Assembly: GCA_949292375.1 (NCBI GenBank)
Contig: CASEZG010000001.1
Span: 131,811 to 195,810, forward strand
Direction of reading: 5' to 3'
Origin: an uncultured Pseudomonadota bacterium
GTDB lineage: Bacteria; Pseudomonadota; Alphaproteobacteria; RF32; CAG-239
DNA: 64,000 nucleotides
Shown: positions 12,355-61,010 of the stretch, in pieces
Layout of the letters: every line of letters begins with the position of its first letter
How positions within the stretch are numbered: the stretch's first letter is position 1
Made by a program: the position numbers and the translations under genes
The notes under the pieces: generated by a model
Seen by the model: the letters and a program-made list of their open reading frames with translations, nothing else
Told to the model about the DNA's origin: nothing
The model's database searches: none

Positions 12355-13260
12355 ATGCAGAATTTCGGAATCGATGAGTTTTTGGAGATGATGGTAGCCG
12401 AAAAAGGGGCTGCTCAAAATACGCTTGAGGCTTATCGACGAGATGTTCAGCAGTTTATAGATTTTGTTGCTGCAAAGGATGTTTCTGATTTTACGAGGGC
12501 TGATGTTTCAGCTTTTGTGCAAGACTTGGGCGAGCGCAAATTTTCGCCTAAAACCGTTGCAAGAAAGCTCTCGGCCGTGCGTGAGTATTTTAAGTTTTTG
12601 TATTCGGAAAAAGAGATTAAAGATAATCCGGCGGCAAATGTTCTATCTCCTAAAAAAGAAAAGTCTTTGCCAAAGTTTTTGACCGAAGAAGAAATCAGAT
12701 TGCTGATTGAGGCGGCAAAGGCTCATTCAGATTTTCGGCACAAAAGAACGGCGGTTATGTTGGAGTTGATGTATGCCTGCGGTTTGCGTGTGTCCGAGCT
12801 TGTCAGTCTGCCGGAAAATTGCATAAATTATGATAAAAAGCAGATTATGCTTAAAGGCAAAGGCAGCAAAGAGCGAATCGTTCCCGTGGCTCCGGCGGCG
12901 TTGAATGCTGTTTCCGAGTATATGACTTATCGGGATTATTTTTTGAAAGCAGGCCGAAAATCGATTTGGTTGTTTCCTTCCAAAATATCTTCTTCCGGAC
13001 ATATTACGCGGGATGCTTTTTTTAAAAACATTAAAGATGCAGCGATAGAGGCGGGTTTGCCTCGCGAAAGAGTTACGCCGCATGTTTTGCGCCACTCCTT
13101 TGCCACCCATTTGCTCAACCATGATGTGGATTTGCGCTCCGTGCAAAAAATGCTCGGGCATGAAGATATCGGCACGACCGAAATATATACCCATATCATC
13201 TCCGAAGCGTTGATTAGGAAGGTGCAGAGTAAACACCCTCTGGCTAAAAAACTCGTATAA
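12355..13260 (+). CDS. xerD: Site-specific tyrosine recombinase XerD
   Basis: NTLEAYRRD, YACGLRVSELV, GKGSKER, PHVLRHSFATHLL and LGHEDIGTTEIYTH; divergent from aroK as in other alphaproteobacteria. Confidence 0.93.
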   Translation: MQNFGIDEFLEMMVAEKGAAQNTLEAYRRDVQQFIDFVAAKDVSDFTRADVSAFVQDLGERKFSPKTVARKLSAVREYFKFLYSEKEIKDNPAANVLSPKKEKSLPKFLTEEEIRLLIEAAKAHSDFRHKRTAVMLELMYACGLRVSELVSLPENCINYDKKQIMLKGKGSKERIVPVAPAALNAVSEYMTYRDYFLKAGRKSIWLFPSKISSSGHITRDAFFKNIKDAAIEAGLPRERVTPHVLRHSFATHLLNHDVDLRSVQKMLGHEDIGTTEIYTHIISEALIRKVQSKHPLAKKLV

Positions 13261-13371
13261 TGGGTAACTAATACAGAAACTGCGGGGTAAAATTTTTAGT
13301 CATGTACTTCTGTGTACACTCAAAAAATTTTTCCCTTGTTTCTTATTATTTACCTCATTCTCCGAGTTTTT
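13247..13371. repeat. RPE-like ~125-bp imperfect palindrome overlapping the xerD stop
   Basis: Ends aaaaactcg/cgagttttt; core tca-tgtac-ttctgt-gtaca-ctc; arms taatacagaaac/gtttcttatta. Confidence 0.8.
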
Positions 13372-13470
13372 ACAAAAAGTGGTCATCTAGTACAGATTTT
13401 GCAGGTCAAAAGTGTCCTCACGACCTTCATTCTCCAAGTTTTTACAAAACTCGTATAAGGGTTATCTGGT
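13372..13470. repeat. Decayed tandem fragments of the same palindromic element
   Basis: tagtacagattttgc, tcctcacg, cattctccaagttttt and aaaactcgtataa recur from the adjacent copy and the pnp copy. Confidence 0.6.
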
Positions 13471-13489
13471 AGTTGTGCAAGAAAATTTA

Positions 13490-37585: not shown

Positions 37586-39070
37586 CTAGCAGCAGAGTTC
37601 TTCAATGATTTTGTTTAAAACCGCAAAGCCTTTTGATGTTGCTTTGAGGTTGTTTTTTGTTTCCGTTAAAAAGCCTTCAGAAATAAGATGTTGTAGATTT
37701 TTTGTGTTGATTGTTTCAGCAAAAGTTAAGCCGCAATTTTCAAAAAATCGTTGTTTGTTTATGCCCTGATTAAGCCGTAAACCCATAATGATTAATTCTT
37801 CAGCGCGTTCCTGTGCCGTGAGCTCTTCTATGTTTAAATGATGCGTGGTGGCATAAATTTTGCCCTCAGACATAAATCTTCCGTGGGCGGATTTGCCAAT
37901 GCCTATATAATCATCTCCTTCCCAATAAAGCAGATTATGTTTGCAAGGCAGTCCATAGTTTGAAACTTCGTATTGCGGATAGCCGTTGGTGTTAAGATAA
38001 TCGTTGGTGAAGGCATACATCTGAACAGCAGCCTCATCTTCTAAGGCACGTACGCCTTTGGCCGCAAAAACCGTACCTTCTTCAATGGTTAATTGATATA
38101 GGGAAATGTGCTTAAAACCAAAATTTGTTGCTTGTTTCAGCTCTTGTTTCCATTCTTCCAAGCTTTGCTGTGGACGGGCATAAATCAAATCCATAGAATG
38201 ATTGTCAAAGATATTTAAGACTTCATCTATGGCTTTTTGAGCTTGTTTGAGGTTATGTGTGCGGCCTAAGAATCGTAAGTCTTTGTCATTTAGAGCCTGA
38301 ACGCCTAAAGATAACCGATTGATTCCGGCAGTTTTTAGCTCATAAAACATATTTTCTCTGTCTGAGTTGGGGTTGGCTTCCAGACTAATCTCTATATCTG
38401 AACGAATCTGCCATTTTTTAGCAATGAAGTTGATGATTTTTTCTATGTTTTGCGGCTTAATCAGCGATGGTGTACCGCCGCCGAAAAAAATACTACTGAC
38501 AGTTTTATCTTGTGTGAACCGATGATAATATTCTAAGTCTTGCAAATAGCCGTCTATTATTTCTTCTTGTGCTACATCCTTTTTGACTTCCTTATAAAAG
38601 TCGCAATAAGGGCAACGAGATAGGCAAAACGGCCAGTGGATATAAACTCCGAAAGGTTTTAAAACTCGTCTGGTGGGCAACTGCTTGGGCAATCCGGTGC
38701 TCACATCCTCATGTACATTAGAGTACATTCCGGTGTTGCGCTCCGTGTCGTCCGGCGCATTTCCCTCACCAGCCGAGTTTTGGAAAGTGGAGGCGGGTAG
38801 CTGCTTGGGCAATCCGGTGCTTTTATTCTCATGTACATTAGAGTACATTCCGGTGTTGTGCTCCGTGTCGTCCGGCGCATTTCCCTCACCAGCCGAGTTT
38901 TGGAAAGTGGAGGCGGGTAACTGCTTGGGCAATCCGGTGCTTTTATTCTCATGTACATTAGAGTACATTCCGGTGTTGCGCTCCGTGTCGTCCGGCGCAT
39001 TTCCCTCACCAGCCGAGTTTTGGAAAGCGGAGGCGGGTAACTGCTTGGGCAATCCGGCATTCATATCCAC
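37586..39070 (-). CDS. hemW: Radical SAM heme chaperone HemW (HemN-like) with repeat-derived N-terminal extension
   Basis: YIHWPFCLSRCPYCDF, FFGGGTPS, EANP, RLSLGVQ, DLIYARP, SLYQLTIE, YEVSNY and HNLLYW; start codon uncertain. Confidence 0.9.
   Translation of the reverse strand: MDMNAGLPKQLPASAFQNSAGEGNAPDDTERNTGMYSNVHENKSTGLPKQLPASTFQNSAGEGNAPDDTEHNTGMYSNVHENKSTGLPKQLPASTFQNSAGEGNAPDDTERNTGMYSNVHEDVSTGLPKQLPTRRVLKPFGVYIHWPFCLSRCPYCDFYKEVKKDVAQEEIIDGYLQDLEYYHRFTQDKTVSSIFFGGGTPSLIKPQNIEKIINFIAKKWQIRSDIEISLEANPNSDRENMFYELKTAGINRLSLGVQALNDKDLRFLGRTHNLKQAQKAIDEVLNIFDNHSMDLIYARPQQSLEEWKQELKQATNFGFKHISLYQLTIEEGTVFAAKGVRALEDEAAVQMYAFTNDYLNTNGYPQYEVSNYGLPCKHNLLYWEGDDYIGIGKSAHGRFMSEGKIYATTHHLNIEELTAQERAEELIIMGLRLNQGINKQRFFENCGLTFAETINTKNLQHLISEGFLTETKNNLKATSKGFAVLNKIIEELCC
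38657..39057. repeat. RPE-1-like palindromic element amplified as a 120-bp tandem array (3 units plus a partial)
   Basis: Near-identical units start at 38681, 38801 and 38921 with a partial at 39041; one complete palindrome spans 38657-38786. Confidence 0.92.
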
Positions 39071-46509: not shown

Positions 46510-48793
46510 TTATAGAACTTCGCGGCGGCCGACGTGGTCTGCGGCGGAGATGATGCCTTCTTCCTCCATCTTGTCTATCAGCGAAGCGGCACGGTTGTAT
46601 CCTATGCGGAGTTTGCGTTGGATGTAGCTGGTGGAAGCTTTTTTATCATTTTGAACGATGGCTACGGCTTGTGCATACAAGTCTTCATCTGAACCGGCGG
46701 CAAAGTCGCCTTTGTCAAAGACAGAGCCGCTATCTTTTTCAGATAATTCGCCTTCGGTTACACCGGAAACATATTCAGGTTCTCGCTGGGTCTTTAGGAA
46801 CTCAACGACTTTTTCGACCTCGCTATCCTTAACAAAAGAGCCGTGTACGCGAATCGGTCTTTGTCCGGCCGGCATATAAAGCATATCTCCCATACCGAGT
46901 AATTGTTCCGCGCCTTGTGATACGTGTCGGGAAGTTAGCTTTAATTGTACCGGTAATGACATCAACAGATGGTCTTTGGGTGGACATAATCAGGTGTAAG
47001 CCTGCGGCACGAGCCATTTGGGCTAAGCGTTGGATGGCGGCTTCAACATCTTTGCCGGCTACTAACATAAGGTCGGCCATTTCATCTACAACAATGACAA
47101 TGTAGGGCAAAGGTGTGAGGTCTAGTTCTTGTTTTTCAAAGATGGGTTTGCCGGTCTCAGCATCAAATCCGGTTTGAACGGTGCGTTCAATTTTTTCGCC
47201 ACTGGCTTTGAGTTCCTGAAGTTTTTGGTTATAGCCGGCGATATTGCGGACGTTGAGTTGCGCCATAGCGCGATAGCGGTCTTCCATTTCCTTAACCGCC
47301 TAGCGGTCTTCCATTTCCTTAACCGCCCATTTTAAACCAATAACGGCTTTGGCGGGATCGGTAATAACCGGTGTGAGCAAATGCGGAATGCCATTATACA
47401 TTGAGAACTCAAGCATTTTCGGGTCAATCATTATCAATTTGCATTCTTCAGGGCGCATACGATACAGAAGAGAAAGAATCATCGTGTTAACACCGACCGA
47501 TTTACCGGAACCGGTGGTACCTGCGACCAACAAGTGCGGCATTTTGGCGAGGTCAGCATAAACATTGCGGCCACCGATATCTTTGCCAAGAACAACATTT
47601 AAGGTGTTTTTGGTTTCGCGGAAAGCAGGGTCTTCAAGTAAGTCCTTGAACCATACGGTTTCGCGGTTTTTGTTTGGCATTTCGATACCAATCGTATTTG
47701 AACCGGGGACAACGGCGATACGGACAGAGACTGCAGACATAGAGCGTGCAATATCATCCGCTAAGCCGATAACGCGGGCAGTTTTGGTGCCGGGGGCGGG
47801 TTCTAATTCATATAAGGTTACGACCGGACCGGGACGGACTTTGACGATTTTACCGTTAACACCAAATTCTTGCAGAACATTTTCTAAATCGCGGGCGATG
47901 CTTTCAAGTTCTTTTTCGCTGATAAGATTGCCGCCTTTGTCTTTAGGGCGAGAAAGCAAGTTGACATCCGGATACATATAGCCATCATCAATATCTTTCT
48001 TTTTATTTGTTTTTGTTGCAGATTTATTCGAAGCAGCGGGAGCATCCTCTTTTTCACTTTTAACCTTAGGTTCTTTTCGCTCTTTGGGGGCTTTTTCTTT
48101 GCTTGGCTTGATGACAAGCTCATTGTTTTCTTCATCGGAATGCTTAAATTTGATTTTAGAAAGTCCCAAAGCGATGATGCGGAAGCAGAGGCGTAAAAAT
48201 TTCCATATATATATAGCTATGGTGCGAAAACCTCTGTACCATGTTTTATAAGTTATACCGACTGCAAAGTTGAAAGACAGCATAGTTAAGCAGAAGCTGA
48301 CAAAAAGCAGAATTTCGCGGCGGAAAGGGAAATTGAAAATGTTAGATGAATTCATGCTTAAAGATGCAAAAAGATGTCCGATGCTGCCGCCTAGTTTGTA
48401 TTGGCCAAAATATTCTGAAGGCAAGAGCCCTAAGAAAATAGCCAGAAACAGAGAGCCAAGGAAAAAAGCCATAATACGGGTGTAGGGGTGCAAAAACTCG
48501 CGGAGGCGGAGACAATTATAGCCCCAAGAAATTGGTGCAACTAAAAAGACGGCAAGAGAGATTCCCCAATAGGTTACGATAAAGTCAGCCAGTTTTGAGC
48601 CGAAAGAACCTAGATAATTGTTGATTTGTCTTGCTGTTGCTACGTTTGAGGAGGCGTCCATTGCATCATAACCAATAAGGCTGACAAAGGCAGCCAACGT
48701 AAAAGTGATGATGAATGCGCCAAACAAACGCCATAGTACTTTATTTAAAAAGCTTTTTTCTTTTTTCTTTGCTTTTTTTGCCATAATTTCCAC
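46510..48793 (-). pseudogene. ftsK: DNA translocase FtsK, interrupted in this sequence (in-frame TAG plus a frameshift)
   Basis: N-terminal TMs, [53 protein letters not shown] and gamma-domain GYNRAA are split over three ORFs. Confidence 0.85.
47274..47327. repeat. Perfect 27-bp tandem duplication inside ftsK
   Basis: tagcggtcttccatttccttaaccgcc occurs twice. Confidence 0.97.
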
Positions 48794-58719: not shown

Positions 58720-60846
58720 ATGATCGATTTTAAAGTGTGCCGCAAAGAAATGGAATGGGGCGGACGCAAGTTGGTTTTGGAAACGGGAAAAGTTGCCAGA
58801 CAAGCCGAAGGAGCTGTTTTGGTTACTTATGGTGAAACAGAGGTTTTGGCTACAGTTTGCGCCGCAAAAGAGGTTAAGGCAGATCAGGATTTCTTCCCTT
58901 TGACCGTTAATTATCAGGAAAAATATTATGCAACGGGTAAAGTTCCCGGTGGCTTTATGAAGAGAGAAGGCAAGCCTTCTGAGCGCGAAGTTTTAATCTC
59001 TCGTTTGATTGACCGTCCGATACGCCCGCTGTTTCCGGATGCTTTTAAAAATGAAGTTCAGGTTATTTGCACGGTTTTGTCTCATGATCAACAAACAGAT
59101 TCCGATATTCCGGCAATGATTGCCGCTTCGGCTGCTTTGACAATTTCGGGTATTCCGTTCTTGGGTCCGATTGGTGCGGCTAAAGTTGGTTATATTGATG
59201 GACAGTTTGTTTTGAACCCGACAATTGAGCAGATGCCGAACACAAATTTGGAGCTCTCTGTTGCCGGTACGTCTGAAGGTGTTTTGATGGTTGAATCTGA
59301 GGCTAATGAGCTTTCAGAGGAGACAATGCTTAATGCAGTTATGTTTGGTTTTGAAAGCTTCCAGCCTGTTATTAAGATGATTAAGGAACTCAAGGCCGAA
59401 GCCGGAAAACCAGACTGGGAAGCTCCTGCTTTTCCGCCGGAGTTCGATGCTTTGTATGCTCGTATCGAAAAAGAATTTATCGGTAAATATGAAGAGGCAT
59501 TTAAGGTTACAGATAAACTTAAGAGAGGCGAGTTGGTTGGACAGGCTTCGGAAGAAGTTAAAGCAACGATTGACCCCGAAAATGAGCTTGAAATGCGTTA
59601 TGTCGGGGATGCTATTGAAAAGTTGATGCATAAAGTTGTTCGTGAGAAGGTTTTGACTACGGGACACCGTATTGATGGTCGTGATACCAAGACGGTTAGA
59701 CCAATTCAGTGCGAAGTTGATGTTTTGCCTTGTGCGCATGGTTCTGCGTTGTTTACGCGTGGCGAAACTCAGGCAATGGTTGTTACAACTTTGGGTACTG
59801 GCGATGATGCTCAGGTTGTTGACGGCTTGATGAACGAATATAAGGAAGACTTTATGTTGAACTACAACTTCCCGCCGTTTTCGGTTGGTGAATGTGGTAG
59901 AATCGGAAGTCCCGGACGTCGCGAAATCGGTCACGGTAAGCTCGCTTGGCGCGCTATTCATCCGATGATGCCGAAAAATAAGGATACTTTCCCTTATACT
60001 GTTCGTGTTGTTTCAGAGATTATGGAATCCAATGGTTCTTCTTCAATGGCAACGGTTTGCGGTACGACAATGTCTTTGATGGCTGCAGGTGTACCGATGG
60101 AAAAACCGGTTGCAGGTATTGCTATGGGCTTGATTAAGGAAGATGATGGTCGTGTGGCTGTCTTGACCGATATTTTGGGCGATGAAGACCATTTGGGCGA
60201 TATGGACTTTAAGGTTGCCGGTACGAAGGACGGCGTAACAGCTTTGCAGATGGATATTAAAATTACATCTATCACCAAAGAGATTATGCAGACGGCCTTG
60301 GCTCAGGCGCATGAGGGTCGTATTCATATTCTGGGCGAAATGGCAAAAGCTATTGCTGAGCCTCGTCCGCATGTTTCTGACCGTGCGCCGCGCATTATTG
60401 CCATTAAGATTCCGGTTGATAAAATCCGCGAAGTTATCGGTTCCGGTGGTAAGGTTATTCGTGAAATTACCGAAAAGACCAATACCAAAATTGATATTGC
60501 TGATGATGGTGTTATCAAGATTGCTTCAATCAAGAAAGAAGACGGTGAAGCCGCTTTGGATTGGATTATGGGTATTGTTGCCGAGCCGGAAGAAGGTAAG
60601 ATTTACCATGGCGTGATTACCAAGATTATGGACTTTGGTGCTTTTGTACGCTTCCTCGGAACAACCGAAGGTCTGGTTCATATTTCAGAAGTTAAGAACG
60701 AGCGTATTGCTTCTGTTTCTGACTTCTATAAAGAAGGTGATGCTATCTGGGTTAAGTGCTTGGGTACGGATAACCGTGGTAAGGTTAAACTTTCAGCAAA
60801 AAGGGTTAATCAGGAAACCGGTGAGGATTTGGAAAAGCACGAATAA
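58720..60846 (+). CDS. pnp: Polyribonucleotide nucleotidyltransferase
   Basis: [51 protein letters not shown], then KH and S1 domains. Confidence 0.97.
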
Positions 60847-60992
60847 TTGGTGATTAATACAGATTTTGCGGGTTGCTGACATCCTCACGTACTTCTGTGT
60901 ACGCTCCGGTGTCAGCCCCCTGAAATCTTATTACTCCCCTAATTCTTCGTGCTTTTCTTTGACGCGGAATTGGTGATTAATACAGATTTTGC
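60832..60992. repeat. RPE-like 126-bp palindrome overlapping the pnp stop, plus a 25-bp partial second copy
   Basis: gaaaagcacgaa/ttcgtgcttttc ends; core catcctcacgtac-ttctgt-gtacgctccggtg; aattggtgattaatacagattttgc at 60845 and 60968. Confidence 0.85.
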
Positions 60993-61010
60993 TGATTATG
61001 CATAAAAAAT

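Follow-up and report, generated by a model that had tools for sequence, protein, structure and literature searches.

A long hairpin over the xerD stop codon belongs to an apparently undescribed family of palindromic repeats with constant orientation to replication

Introduction

What is a hairpin of about 125 nt doing across the stop codon of xerD, and is it as RNA or as single-stranded DNA (ssDNA) that its fold matters? The question arises in the window analysed here, a stretch of 64,000 nt from a 1.44-Mb gut alphaproteobacterial metagenome-assembled genome (MAG; G000 in the following), for which an earlier note had proposed, from the letters alone, selection on a fold of either kind.

Results

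The elements at xerD, hemW and pnp

A hairpin overlapping the xerD stop and decayed tandem fragments behind it had been described, and both are confirmed, with all statements made about the sequence holding true. The locus comprises:

12355-13260, + strand: xerD, the co-oriented upstream gene (translation; Pfam Phage_integrase, E 1.5e-45)
13246-13372 (approximate span), + strand: full-length element, a 125-nt hairpin (sequence, fold; best covariance-model match, 142 bits)
13374-13444, + strand: second copy, internally deleted (nhmmer partial match over model positions 13-75; alignment with the relative L018)
13446-13472, + strand: third fragment, left terminus only, AAAACTCGTATAAGGGTTATCTGGTAG (repeat family D12; alignment)

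The gene ends in AAA AAA CTC GTA TAA; its last four codons and stop (KKLV*) come from the 5' arm of the element, the TAA (13258-13260) lies 11 nt inside it, and 14-15 nt of the hairpin are xerD coding sequence. The internally deleted copy is a fusion at 13422/13423 of a b-type left half (to CTCACG, 13422) with the right end of the following copy. The relative L018 (97% XerD identity) retains both full copies in the alignment where the fusion sits, and carries an additional copy between xerD and the window-type copy. Two further arrays lie in the window:

38661-39060, + strand: hemW array of a GC-richer subfamily, three tandem 120-nt copies and a partial fourth (repeat family D1, covariance model)
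60832-60957, + strand: full-length element over the pnp stop (EKHE*, TAA 60844-60846; sequence, fold, covariance model 122.5 bits)
60966-60997, + strand: what is left of the 5' (left) arm of a second copy, downstream of the pnp element (repeat family D5, 93% to 60845-60874)

The predicted fold of the xerD copy has -42.3 kcal/mol on the + strand (z -6.72) and -43.9 on the - strand (z -7.08), that of the pnp copy -57.6 (z -8.50) and -58.2 (z -8.70) on its two strands, and none of 200 shuffles equalled the native energy in any of the four folds. Common to both copies are the loop GTAC-TTCTGT-GTAC, the adjoining TCA/CT internal loop and a TAATACAGA/TCTTATTA segment with a bulged C. Other parts differ yet still pair, as in the outer stem (AAAAACTCG/CGAGTTTTT at xerD, GAAAAGCACG/CGTGCTTTTC at pnp) and the sub-apical stem (TAAAATTTT/AAAATTTTT versus GCTGACA/TGTCAGC), so the earlier description of common loops and exchanged stems is borne out; the same is true of the ends said to be common to the xerD copy and the hemW array (AAAACTCG/CGAGTTTT). 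The hemW array is antisense to hemW, with its reverse complement in frame with the gene, and the hemW frame is open through one, three and five copies in three species.

A family with a covarying fold

The covariance-model search of the genome and its relatives that had been proposed uncovered a family of about 25 loci in G000 (31 matches by nhmmer, 42 by the covariance model), with matches in 60 of 101 related genomes (E<=1e-5) and, within family f1, in 53 of 60. Its distribution covers one family of gut Alphaproteobacteria. The element, about 125 nt long, has the architecture Y-A(3-6)-N3-4-CG ... CG-N3-4-T(3-6)-R, and GTAC or GTAG is confined to the apical stem. In an alignment of 58 copies (57 distinct) fitted to the covariance model, many of them orthologues and hence not independent events, 91.1% of cells are paired, whereas shuffling lowers the value to 72.5% and sliding the partners to 42-50%; double compensatory changes occur in 42 of the 47 base pairs, with covariation in all stems, the apical and internal loops are fixed, and none of 500 shuffles reaches the native value in any of five measures. 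The strong covariation, together with the invariant unpaired positions, means that a single-strand fold is under selection, in agreement with what had been deduced from the window. The outer stem keeps its length and register in all copies and covaries within the model, and its origin as the leftover of an earlier terminator was rejected on these grounds.

The earlier note had offered a minus-strand reading of the internal loops (GAG/UGA, compatible with tandem sheared G-A pairs). That reading is not favoured, since three observations identify the plus strand as the conserved one: covariance-model scores are 92-142 bits forward and 34-54 bits in reverse; fixed G.U (or G.T) pairs exist on the forward strand only (positions 50-109, 33 GU versus 1 AC; positions 65-96, 30 UG versus 0 AC); and the forward strand is the mRNA sense of the upstream gene in 50 of the 58 copies. 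An artefact of skewed mutation was rejected as the source of this orientation, given that discrete asymmetric loops and bulges are worth about 80 bits.

Rfam gave no match at gathering score in the 64-kb window, and at E<=0.1 over 12 element-carrying loci no match falls on an element. Searching an AT-rich copy by blastn against plasmids and phages returned no match. A loose probe for dif-like sites produced only two matches with 8 mismatches, and the partial similarity of CGTATAATG to a dif arm is put down to chance. The tetranucleotide GTAC has an unremarkable observed/expected ratio of 0.88, with no avoidance.

Position at stop codons

A co-oriented open reading frame of at least 100 codons, with its stop starting between -12 and +26 nt of the element, accompanies 50 of the 58 copies, compared to 3 of 58 in the mirror control. 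The stop offsets peak at -1 (16 copies), +11 (9), -5 (7) and 0 (5). Among the upstream frames, 36 of 38 are Pfam core genes. The 5' end of the element lies against or across the stop of a leading-strand gene and has a TAA in each of the three frames within its first 25 nt; in a pair of filled and empty sites the element begins exactly at CTC TAA. XerD and PNPase owe their C-terminal tails to it. The element is preceded by T, A or G, which an A-run of variable length follows, so that no fixed tetranucleotide is present. Inspection by eye of 24 junctions revealed no target-site duplication (TA, TAA, TTAA or direct repeats).

Turnover and age

Arrays run head to tail, and copies are gained, lost and recombined between close strains. 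In the close relatives L019, L020, G002 and G006 copies are decayed or absent without replacement. At orthologous sites the subfamilies may differ (C7/L130, 92 of 125 positions identical; C21/L134, 87 of 125). Other copies are well conserved: the orthologous pair C18/L131 is identical at 124 of 126 positions, compared to 99 of 150 third codon positions, with diverged flanks, and the pnp copy at 123 of 127 positions in three congeneric species, compared to 166-178 of 200 third codon positions. Conservation of copies above that of third codon positions fits both host-level constraint and recent homogenisation. The same sites are occupied across genera, and wherever the flanks of matches in G001, G002, G004 and G005 could be located in G000, both genomes have the orthologous site filled; the insertions may therefore be old, and the present diversity may come from recombination or gene conversion as opposed to transposition.

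A wider superfamily

The apical motif TCAYGTAC-N6/7-GTACRCT marks a superfamily that keeps the position at stop codons and is represented in Sphingobium, Agrobacterium vitis and Shinella, among others. The exact motif is present in 33 of 401 sampled alphaproteobacterial genomes, and the genome G395 has 104 motif matches in 0.9 Mb. There are 32 matching plasmid records (Sphingobium, Shinella, Agrobacterium, others), and IMG/VR holds 28 covariance-model matches in 45 motif-carrying loci. In 3 of 4 cases an annotated coding sequence stops at the hairpin or immediately in front of it, and for the GC-rich copies a co-oriented frame ends in the 5' arm in 25 of 29 and a frame converges on the 3' side in 7 of 29. 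Some of the GC-rich members may already be known under the names of older rhizobial repeats (RIME, Sm-repeats, Bru-RS). Br-REP1 and Br-REP2 of Bradyrhizobium are other sequences.

Orientation to replication

With replication direction inferred from GC skew on draft contigs, the forward strand of the element lies on the G-rich (leading-sequence) strand, that is, on the lagging-strand template, in every copy tested. In G000, 25 of 25 loci on 14 contigs agree with the sign of the replication component of the skew, and the long reading frames on those contigs divide into 230 leading and 175 lagging, with about 43% of the genes thus on the other strand. Agreement extends to all 13 testable 20-kb regions of G001, G002, G004, G005 and G038 (26 forward matches) and to 9 of 9 motif matches in the distant genome G348, where they follow the skew through its change of sign within a contig of 1.43 Mb. 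Even the hemW and C32 arrays, which run antisense to the genes on either side, keep the polarity. The constant orientation relative to replication suggests that the elements spread or act as folded ssDNA. Of the two options first offered, RNA or ssDNA, the selected single-strand fold as such stands, and the choice now falls in favour of ssDNA, in view of a polarity that is strict even where copies are antisense to the genes next to them.

Search for a mobilising enzyme

A linked nuclease of the HUH/RAYT type or a reverse transcriptase, as the earlier note had envisaged, was sought and not found. G000, at 92% completeness, has no match to RVT_1, to DDE_Tnp_1, rve or IS110, and none over the cut-off to TnpB; the best score for an integron integrase (TIGR02249), 78.8 bits, falls short of the cut-off of 265. 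The sole Y1/HUH gene (PF01797) in G000 is an ordinary IS200 whose flanking hairpins are unrelated to the element. Among 10 genomes compared, PF01797 is absent from 3 of 5 element-rich ones (G395, G261, G209) and present in 2 of 5 element-free ones (G035, G051). A Y1/HUH partner was rejected on both counts, and a classical MITE on account of the 24 junctions lacking a target duplication and of the missing DDE_Tnp_1, rve and IS110 matches in G000.

Discussion

The explanation we place first, with confidence evenly balanced, takes the xerD hairpin for one of a set of non-autonomous palindromic elements that are handled as ssDNA at the replication fork, and tolerated or co-opted in 3' untranslated regions (UTRs). 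Folding of the single strand exposed on the lagging-strand template at the fork would allow such an element to be recognised and to be moved, or copied to other loci. A trans-acting enzyme might read the conserved apical stem-loop, as in single-strand transposition of the IS200/IS605 or REP type. Selection on mobility would preserve the integrity of the hairpin, and the covariation would be explained by it. Insertions would survive mainly at the 3' ends of genes, with the built-in stops capping the reading frame, and once transcribed there the hairpin may take on a secondary role for the host as part of the 3' UTR. A bolder form of the idea, tentatively possible though on the doubtful side, is a new replication-coupled ssDNA element, conserved throughout the Alphaproteobacteria and lacking a transposase of its own: either a host or unrecognised enzyme would read the apical stem-loop on the lagging-strand template and place copies precisely at the stops of leading-strand genes, or the element would be a polar chromosome signal for the replication or repair machinery.

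The element might instead be a host-serving 3'-UTR RNA structure, transcribed with the upstream gene and acting as terminator, block to 3' exonucleases, RNase III site or stop-codon brake, with the covariation produced by selection on the mRNA fold; judged from the sequences, this is rather unlikely. The sense orientation of 50 of 58 copies starting at the stop codon of a core gene speaks for it, as do the fixed G.U pairs on the sense strand, the conservation of the pnp and C18 copies above third codon positions and the occupancy of sites across genera. Ribosome stalling has been reported for REPs lying no more than 15 nt from a stop codon (PMC5082802). The A-run and T-run ends also resemble a bidirectional terminator. 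In the AT-rich family the T-run that follows the hairpin is base-paired to the 5' A-run; the elements are not picked up by a consensus terminator scan, whose limits on stem and loop are too small for them. What an RNA function leaves unaccounted for is the polarity: despite the roughly 43% of lagging-strand genes, none of the 25 copies in G000, the 26 in the five further genomes and the 9 in G348 is oriented with one, and the genes on either side of the hemW and C32 arrays run antisense to them. Ordinary terminator hairpins, moreover, are still present downstream of the xerD and pnp arrays, GC-rich relatives have no U-run (T-run), and the copies decayed or absent in L019, L020, G002 and G006 have no replacement.

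The polarity, perfect in all three data sets, would also be accommodated by a chromosome-level ssDNA signal maintained by the host, a polar hairpin on the lagging-strand template used, for example, as priming or restart site or as orienting sequence. Conservation of the apical module across the class, the failure to find a transposase and the high density in some small genomes such as G395 are in line with it. We nonetheless consider it improbable: the distribution is patchy (the exact motif in 33 of 401 genomes, and 7 of 60 f1 genomes without a model match), the subfamilies, tandem arrays, internal deletions and changes of copy number between strains are typical of selfish repeats, and the position at stop codons is left unexplained. 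Integron-like attC sites marking gene cassettes share with the element a folded single-strand substrate of similar size, imperfect hairpins with conserved extrahelical bases and variable stems, a start at or overlapping the stop of a co-oriented frame and a strand orientation tied to replication, but are highly improbable here, as no integron integrase was found in G000, the genes in front are dispersed housekeeping (core) genes of conserved synteny and not cassette arrays, and the termini are A-runs and T-runs, not attC core sites (by eye, against the attC consensus).

Returning to the mobile ssDNA element, there exist clear analogies to IS200/IS605 and its miniatures and to REP/BIME-RAYT systems, which are likewise defined by hairpins, make no target duplication, use a fixed strand at the fork and are extragenic, often at gene 3' ends. 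The active strand of IS200/IS605 reportedly lies on the lagging-strand template, as is said to have been established by Ton-Hoang et al. in 2010, and the element has a fixed orientation of this type, with the direction taken from GC skew. It differs in being one long 125-nt hairpin, whereas IS200/IS605 has separate subterminal hairpins at left and right end and a fixed target of 4-5 nt. REPs are palindromes of 20-40 nt (e.g., 35 nt) with a GTAG or CGTC head, as compared to 120-125 nt with A-run and T-run ends. In RAYT systems the Y1 gene is usually flanked by the repeats; the element has no cognate or co-occurring Y1, and with copies uniform in direction throughout a replichore, none of the genes lies between inverted copies.

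Other families resemble it in part. According to PMC3049150, SPRITE of Streptococcus pneumoniae is AT-rich and terminator-like, with AAAA/TTTT termini, located near the 3' ends of coding sequences, and has no detectable target duplication and no known transposase; it is, however, a Firmicute repeat in which a duplex of 18 bp precedes a long U-rich tract, and 63% of it is on the leading strand, unlike the hairpin of about 50 bp with fixed bulges, 100% polarity and a start right at the stop codon. Among Alphaproteobacteria, the Rickettsia palindromic elements measure 100-150 bp, can lie in frame within genes and have no known transposase (PMC10969869). In-frame position is also found here, in the N-terminal repeats of HemW and the C-terminal tails of XerD and PNPase. 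The Rickettsia elements, compared by description only, are mostly internal in-frame insertions, and the part of the source covering them mentions neither abutment to stop codons nor replication polarity (PMC10969869). The enterobacterial ERIC (about 127 bp) is similar in length, is an imperfect palindrome, is co-transcribed and has orientation-dependent effects on mRNA (PMC10969869, PMC3049150); it belongs to another bacterial class, and in the passages of these sources that describe it, the sole basis of comparison, strict polarity and stop-codon position are not reported.

The literature search returned no description of the element, nor of polarity, start at the stop and apical module together, and the large family of palindromic repeats of about 125 bases is apparently undescribed. 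Small palindromic repeats as such are widespread, and its apparent novelty is in the combination: an orientation to replication without exception, a start at the upstream stop and an apical module conserved between gut MAGs, Sphingobium and Agrobacterium. Should the polarity mirror the mechanism, ssDNA transactions at the fork independent of a known HUH enzyme would have a natural system in this family. Genome annotation is affected, since XerD and PNPase receive altered C-termini, and HemW N-terminal repeats, from the element. MAG assemblies are broken by it, as seen from the many copies at contig ends. Four contig runs, probably of DNA, break at the repeat and give no evidence either way on expression. 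The orientation of the element could, in turn, mark the direction of replication on draft contigs.

A family of oriented hairpins

The palindrome that overlaps the xerD stop codon has a counterpart of closely related fold at pnp, and the pertinent features of the window are:

12355-13260, + strand: xerD, 3' end ...CAC CCT CTG GCT AAA AAA CTC GTA TAA
about 13246-13372: xerD hairpin element, a near-perfect 125-nt palindrome
60832-60957: pnp copy of the element

Folded as RNA, the xerD copy gives -42.3 kcal/mol on the + strand (z -6.72) and -43.9 on the - strand (z -7.08), the pnp copy -57.6 (z -8.50) and -58.2 (z -8.70) on its two strands, and none of 200 shuffles equalled the native energy in any of the four folds. 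The features from which the earlier note had linked these copies are all present in the sequence: the shared loop, the TCA/CT internal loop and the TAATACAGA/TCTTATTA segment, together with stems that differ yet still pair and ends common with the hemW array. In the genome that contains the window (G000; 1.44 Mb, 38 contigs, 40.7% G+C), about 20 places were found by the loop signature alone, 31 matches by iterated nhmmer, and 42 matches at E<=0.01 by R1, a covariance model built from 21 copies with the fold of the xerD copy as its structure; the family proposed in that note is thus confirmed. Each copy folded singly forms the same long hairpin, and the true copy number is probably higher, since many of those found are at contig ends. 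Read forward, full copies reach 92-142 bits, compared to 34-54 bits in reverse at the same places; the element therefore has a definite orientation. The XerD relatives are uncultured gut Alphaproteobacteria (MAGs from human, chicken and ruminant), Candidatus Scatocola faecigallinarum among them at 83% identity. With up to 32 candidates scored per genome, R1 matches at E<=1e-5 occur in at least 60 of 101 related genomes, comprising at least 53 of 60 within the window's own family and, counted by genus overall, at least 28 of 63.

In a first alignment, RNAalifold predicted 32 pairs, with compensatory changes in 25. A second alignment, which was fitted to the model and has many orthologous rows, draws 58 forward copies (57 distinct) from the window, from further contigs of G000 and from about 35 additional genomes. 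The idea of covariation around invariant internal loops holds in it, for 42 of 47 pairs have changed on both sides while the unpaired positions are fixed: the 3x3 loop that follows the outer stem, one C.T mismatch, the C bulged out of TAATA-C-AGA, and, beneath the apical YGTAC stem, the TCA/CT loop. Paired cells amount to 91.1%, compared to 72.5% after shuffling and 42-50% with partners slid by 1-3 columns, and on each of five measures the observed value was unreached in 500 shuffles. Two positions are mostly G.U (G.T), in the forward strand only (33 GU vs 1 AC; 30 UG vs 0 AC).

Orientation follows replication

Replication direction was read from the replication component of the GC skew, which in G000 is about 0.14, the coding-strand contribution being about +/-0.10; mean values in the window are about +0.24 for + genes and about +0.04 for - genes. 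At 25 of 25 G000 loci, on 14 contigs, the forward strand of the element is the strand of positive replication component. If copies merely took the direction of the adjacent gene, about 43% would be expected in reverse, given 230 vs 175 long ORFs between the strands of those contigs, and the chance of finding none of 25 opposed would be 0.57^25, or about 8e-7; the hemW and C32 arrays, moreover, are antisense to their surrounding genes yet keep the polarity. Fourteen 20-kb regions of five other genomes (G001, G002, G004, G005, G038; 26 forward hits) behave alike: all hits of any one region share one strand, which is the replication-component strand in 13 of 13 computable regions (one value weak, -0.025), and the fourteenth has a whole-region skew of agreeing sign. 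In G348, a genome of a distant family (48% G+C), polarity of the apical motif agrees at nine of nine places. On its 1.43-Mb contig, six places from 301 to 613 kb, all with a positive component, have the motif in + orientation, and one at 1,149 kb, where the component has turned negative, has it in -; a second contig with a negative component adds two places in -.

In its 5' to 3' direction the G-rich strand follows the movement of the fork, and as parental strand it is the lagging-strand template. The forward hairpin is hence the one exposed as single-stranded DNA. Selection at the RNA level alone is ruled out as the source of perfect polarity, because 43% of genes lie on the other strand. Such polarity would call for a process on single-stranded DNA at the fork, and a process of this kind is the favoured reading. 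The cumulative GC skew of contig C1 is lowest at about 115-120 kb, some 12-17 kb ahead of the window, so that the replication origin is probably just upstream of it; the entire window belongs to one replichore, with + as leading strand.

Position at stop codons

The 5' end of the element coincides with the stop codon of a co-oriented ORF at 18 of 25 G000 loci, three at contig ends being left out of the judgement; the four exceptions are the hemW array, the C32 array, C1:205078 and C9:71491. For 50 of the 58 aligned copies, the stop of a co-oriented ORF (100 codons or longer) starts at -12 to +26 of the first stem base; the mirror control, an ORF converging on the 3' end, gave 3 of 58.

Commonest stop offsets relative to the first stem base
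-1: 16 copies; T/AAAA, TAA completed by the A-run
+11: 9 copies; TAA in GTA TAA TGG, as at xerD and pnp
-5: 7 copies; largely one orthologous locus
0: 5 copies; first stem base is the stop start

TAA can be read from the sequences in all three frames within 25 nt of the 5' arm. The upstream ORFs are ordinary core genes in 36 of 38 tested (Pfam), with matches usually reaching the profile end; they include XerD, PNPase, pyruvate kinase, PGK, ThyA, LepA, IF-2, MutL, BamA, FtsH, Era, RelA/SpoT and Ddl. At bamA, comparison of a filled locus (L153) with the empty one on G000 contig C4 places the beginning of the element exactly after CTC TAA, where the empty site continues directly into the lpxD ribosome-binding site. 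Insertions with built-in stops capping the gene would survive at 3' ends, and the observed position probably reflects such survival combined with a strand-specific preference for T/A-rich ends.

Turnover at orthologous sites

The xerD 3' site carries an internally deleted element remnant in relatives of 83-85% identity, an ordinary terminator in those of about 70%, and other subfamilies in a clade of 56-61%, whose XerD tails are longer by 3-13 codons. At pnp, the window's copy is common to three congeners, a further one has a different copy and another a remnant; in one more the site is empty, with EDLEK* followed by ordinary terminators. Within the genus, no clean empty site was found opposite a filled one among sites with placeable flanks. 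The host may have co-opted some copies as structures of the 3' UTR, that at pnp being the best candidate.

Identity of element and adjoining gene at compared sites
C7 / L130: element 92/125; third codon positions 99/150; different subfamily
C21 / L134: element 87/125; third codon positions 94/150; different subfamily
C18 / L131: element 124/126; third codon positions 99/150; near-identical copy
pnp, three congeners: element 123/127; third codon positions 166-178/200; near-identical copy

Copies join head to tail (...TTTT-R | Y-AAAA...). Arrays are not simple tandem duplications, because subfamilies are mixed within them. The one behind xerD varies by strain: locus L017 equals the window, and L018 (XerD 97% identical) has an additional internally deleted copy right behind xerD, altering the XerD tail, and two full copies in place of the window's single fusion.

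The hemW frame (37586-39070, - strand; compared loci L231, L233) is open through the reverse complement of a 120-nt element array of one copy in G001, three in G000 and five in G004, adding 40 residues per copy (...GLPKQLPAS.FQNSAGE.NAPD.TE.NTGMY..VHE...). Ahead of the conserved PFGVYIHWPFC, only the array offers start codons. Like RPEs, the copies are in frame with the gene, and HemW may, judged from its reading frame, carry a putative variable N-terminal repeat in the RPE manner.

A wider superfamily

In IMG/VR, 45 loci carry the apical motif TCAYGTAC-N6-GTACRCTSNG, and on them R1 gave 28 matches at E<=0.01 (G+C 0.46-0.64); the GC-rich copies fold as hairpins of 120-178 nt. Blastn with one of them returned 32 plasmid records, from Sphingobium (13), Shinella (5), Agrobacterium (4), Phyllobacterium (3) and, with one each, Ensifer, Allorhizobium, Novosphingobium, Bosea, Rhizobium, Aminobacter and Mesorhizobium; none of the 32 was from Sinorhizobium. 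In three of four annotated examples the hairpin lies at the end of a co-oriented CDS or a few bases beyond it. Of 29 GC-rich copies, several of them orthologous between related strains, 25 have the end of a co-oriented ORF longer than 100 codons in the 5' arm, and in 7 an ORF converges from the 3' side.

In an even sample of Alphaproteobacteria, the exact motif TCAYGTAC-N6/7-GTACRCT was present in 33 of 401 genomes (the unpublished G101 included), with a maximum of 104 in a 0.9-Mb genome; the reversed control pattern gave four single hits. A phylum sample yielded 1-2 matches in about 8 of some 253 non-alphaproteobacterial genomes, near background. In nearly all matches listed, Y and R covary (C...G or T...A). 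One 1.5-Mb genome labelled non-alphaproteobacterial, G485, has two loops that match those of the window's family exactly, which suggests a misplaced or contaminated bin.

Candidate enzymes and related systems

The earlier note had envisaged mobilisation by a reverse transcriptase or an HUH/RAYT-type nuclease, and neither suggestion was borne out. G000, 92% complete, has no match to RVT_1, DDE_Tnp_1, rve or IS110, and no TnpB or integron integrase over cut-off. Its four tyrosine recombinases include XerD; the second Xer-type protein is probably XerC. Its sole Y1 transposase is a standard IS200 whose own flanking hairpins are unrelated to the element, and PF01797 does not track the element: of five element-rich genomes three lack it, and of five element-free ones two have it. 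The IS200-type TnpA (intact, 149 aa) lies outside the window at G000:C27:13750-14106 (L127:1474-1923), flanked by its CCGGCTAGGCCGG hairpins, directly behind a transporter-gene terminator and close to the contig end. Whereas RAYT genes are bracketed by inverted repeats, inverted element copies bracket no gene, since all copies of a replichore share one orientation.

The closest working model would be single-strand handling of the IS200/IS605 or REP type. Membership in these families is not claimed, because three of their defining features, namely enzyme, end structure and fixed target, fail in the element. No description of the element was found in the literature searched, where RIME, Sm-repeats and Bru-RS were known by name, not sequence. 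That literature includes a review of MITEs in which RPE, ERIC, Correia and SPRITE are treated (PMC10969869), an article on SPRITE (PMC3049150), one that deals with Br-REP1/2 and with REP close to stop codons (PMC5082802), and one naming RIME, Sm-repeats and AB/C palindromes without sequence (PMC2573895).

Other repeats and composition

Flank searches in G000 revealed another, unrelated repeat some 90-100 nt long, partly beside hairpin elements:

C18:21426-21518
C18:25006-25097
C1:10796-10886
C1:12287-12370
C3:66087-66184
C29:13445-13543

In the window, a 27-nt unit is exactly duplicated in tandem at 47274-47327 (family D8), at the junction of two minus-strand ORFs. Genome-wide, CATG, CTAG, GGCC and TCGA have ratios of about 0.5, and GATC is strongly depleted, with 871 observed vs about 4754 expected (ratio 0.18).
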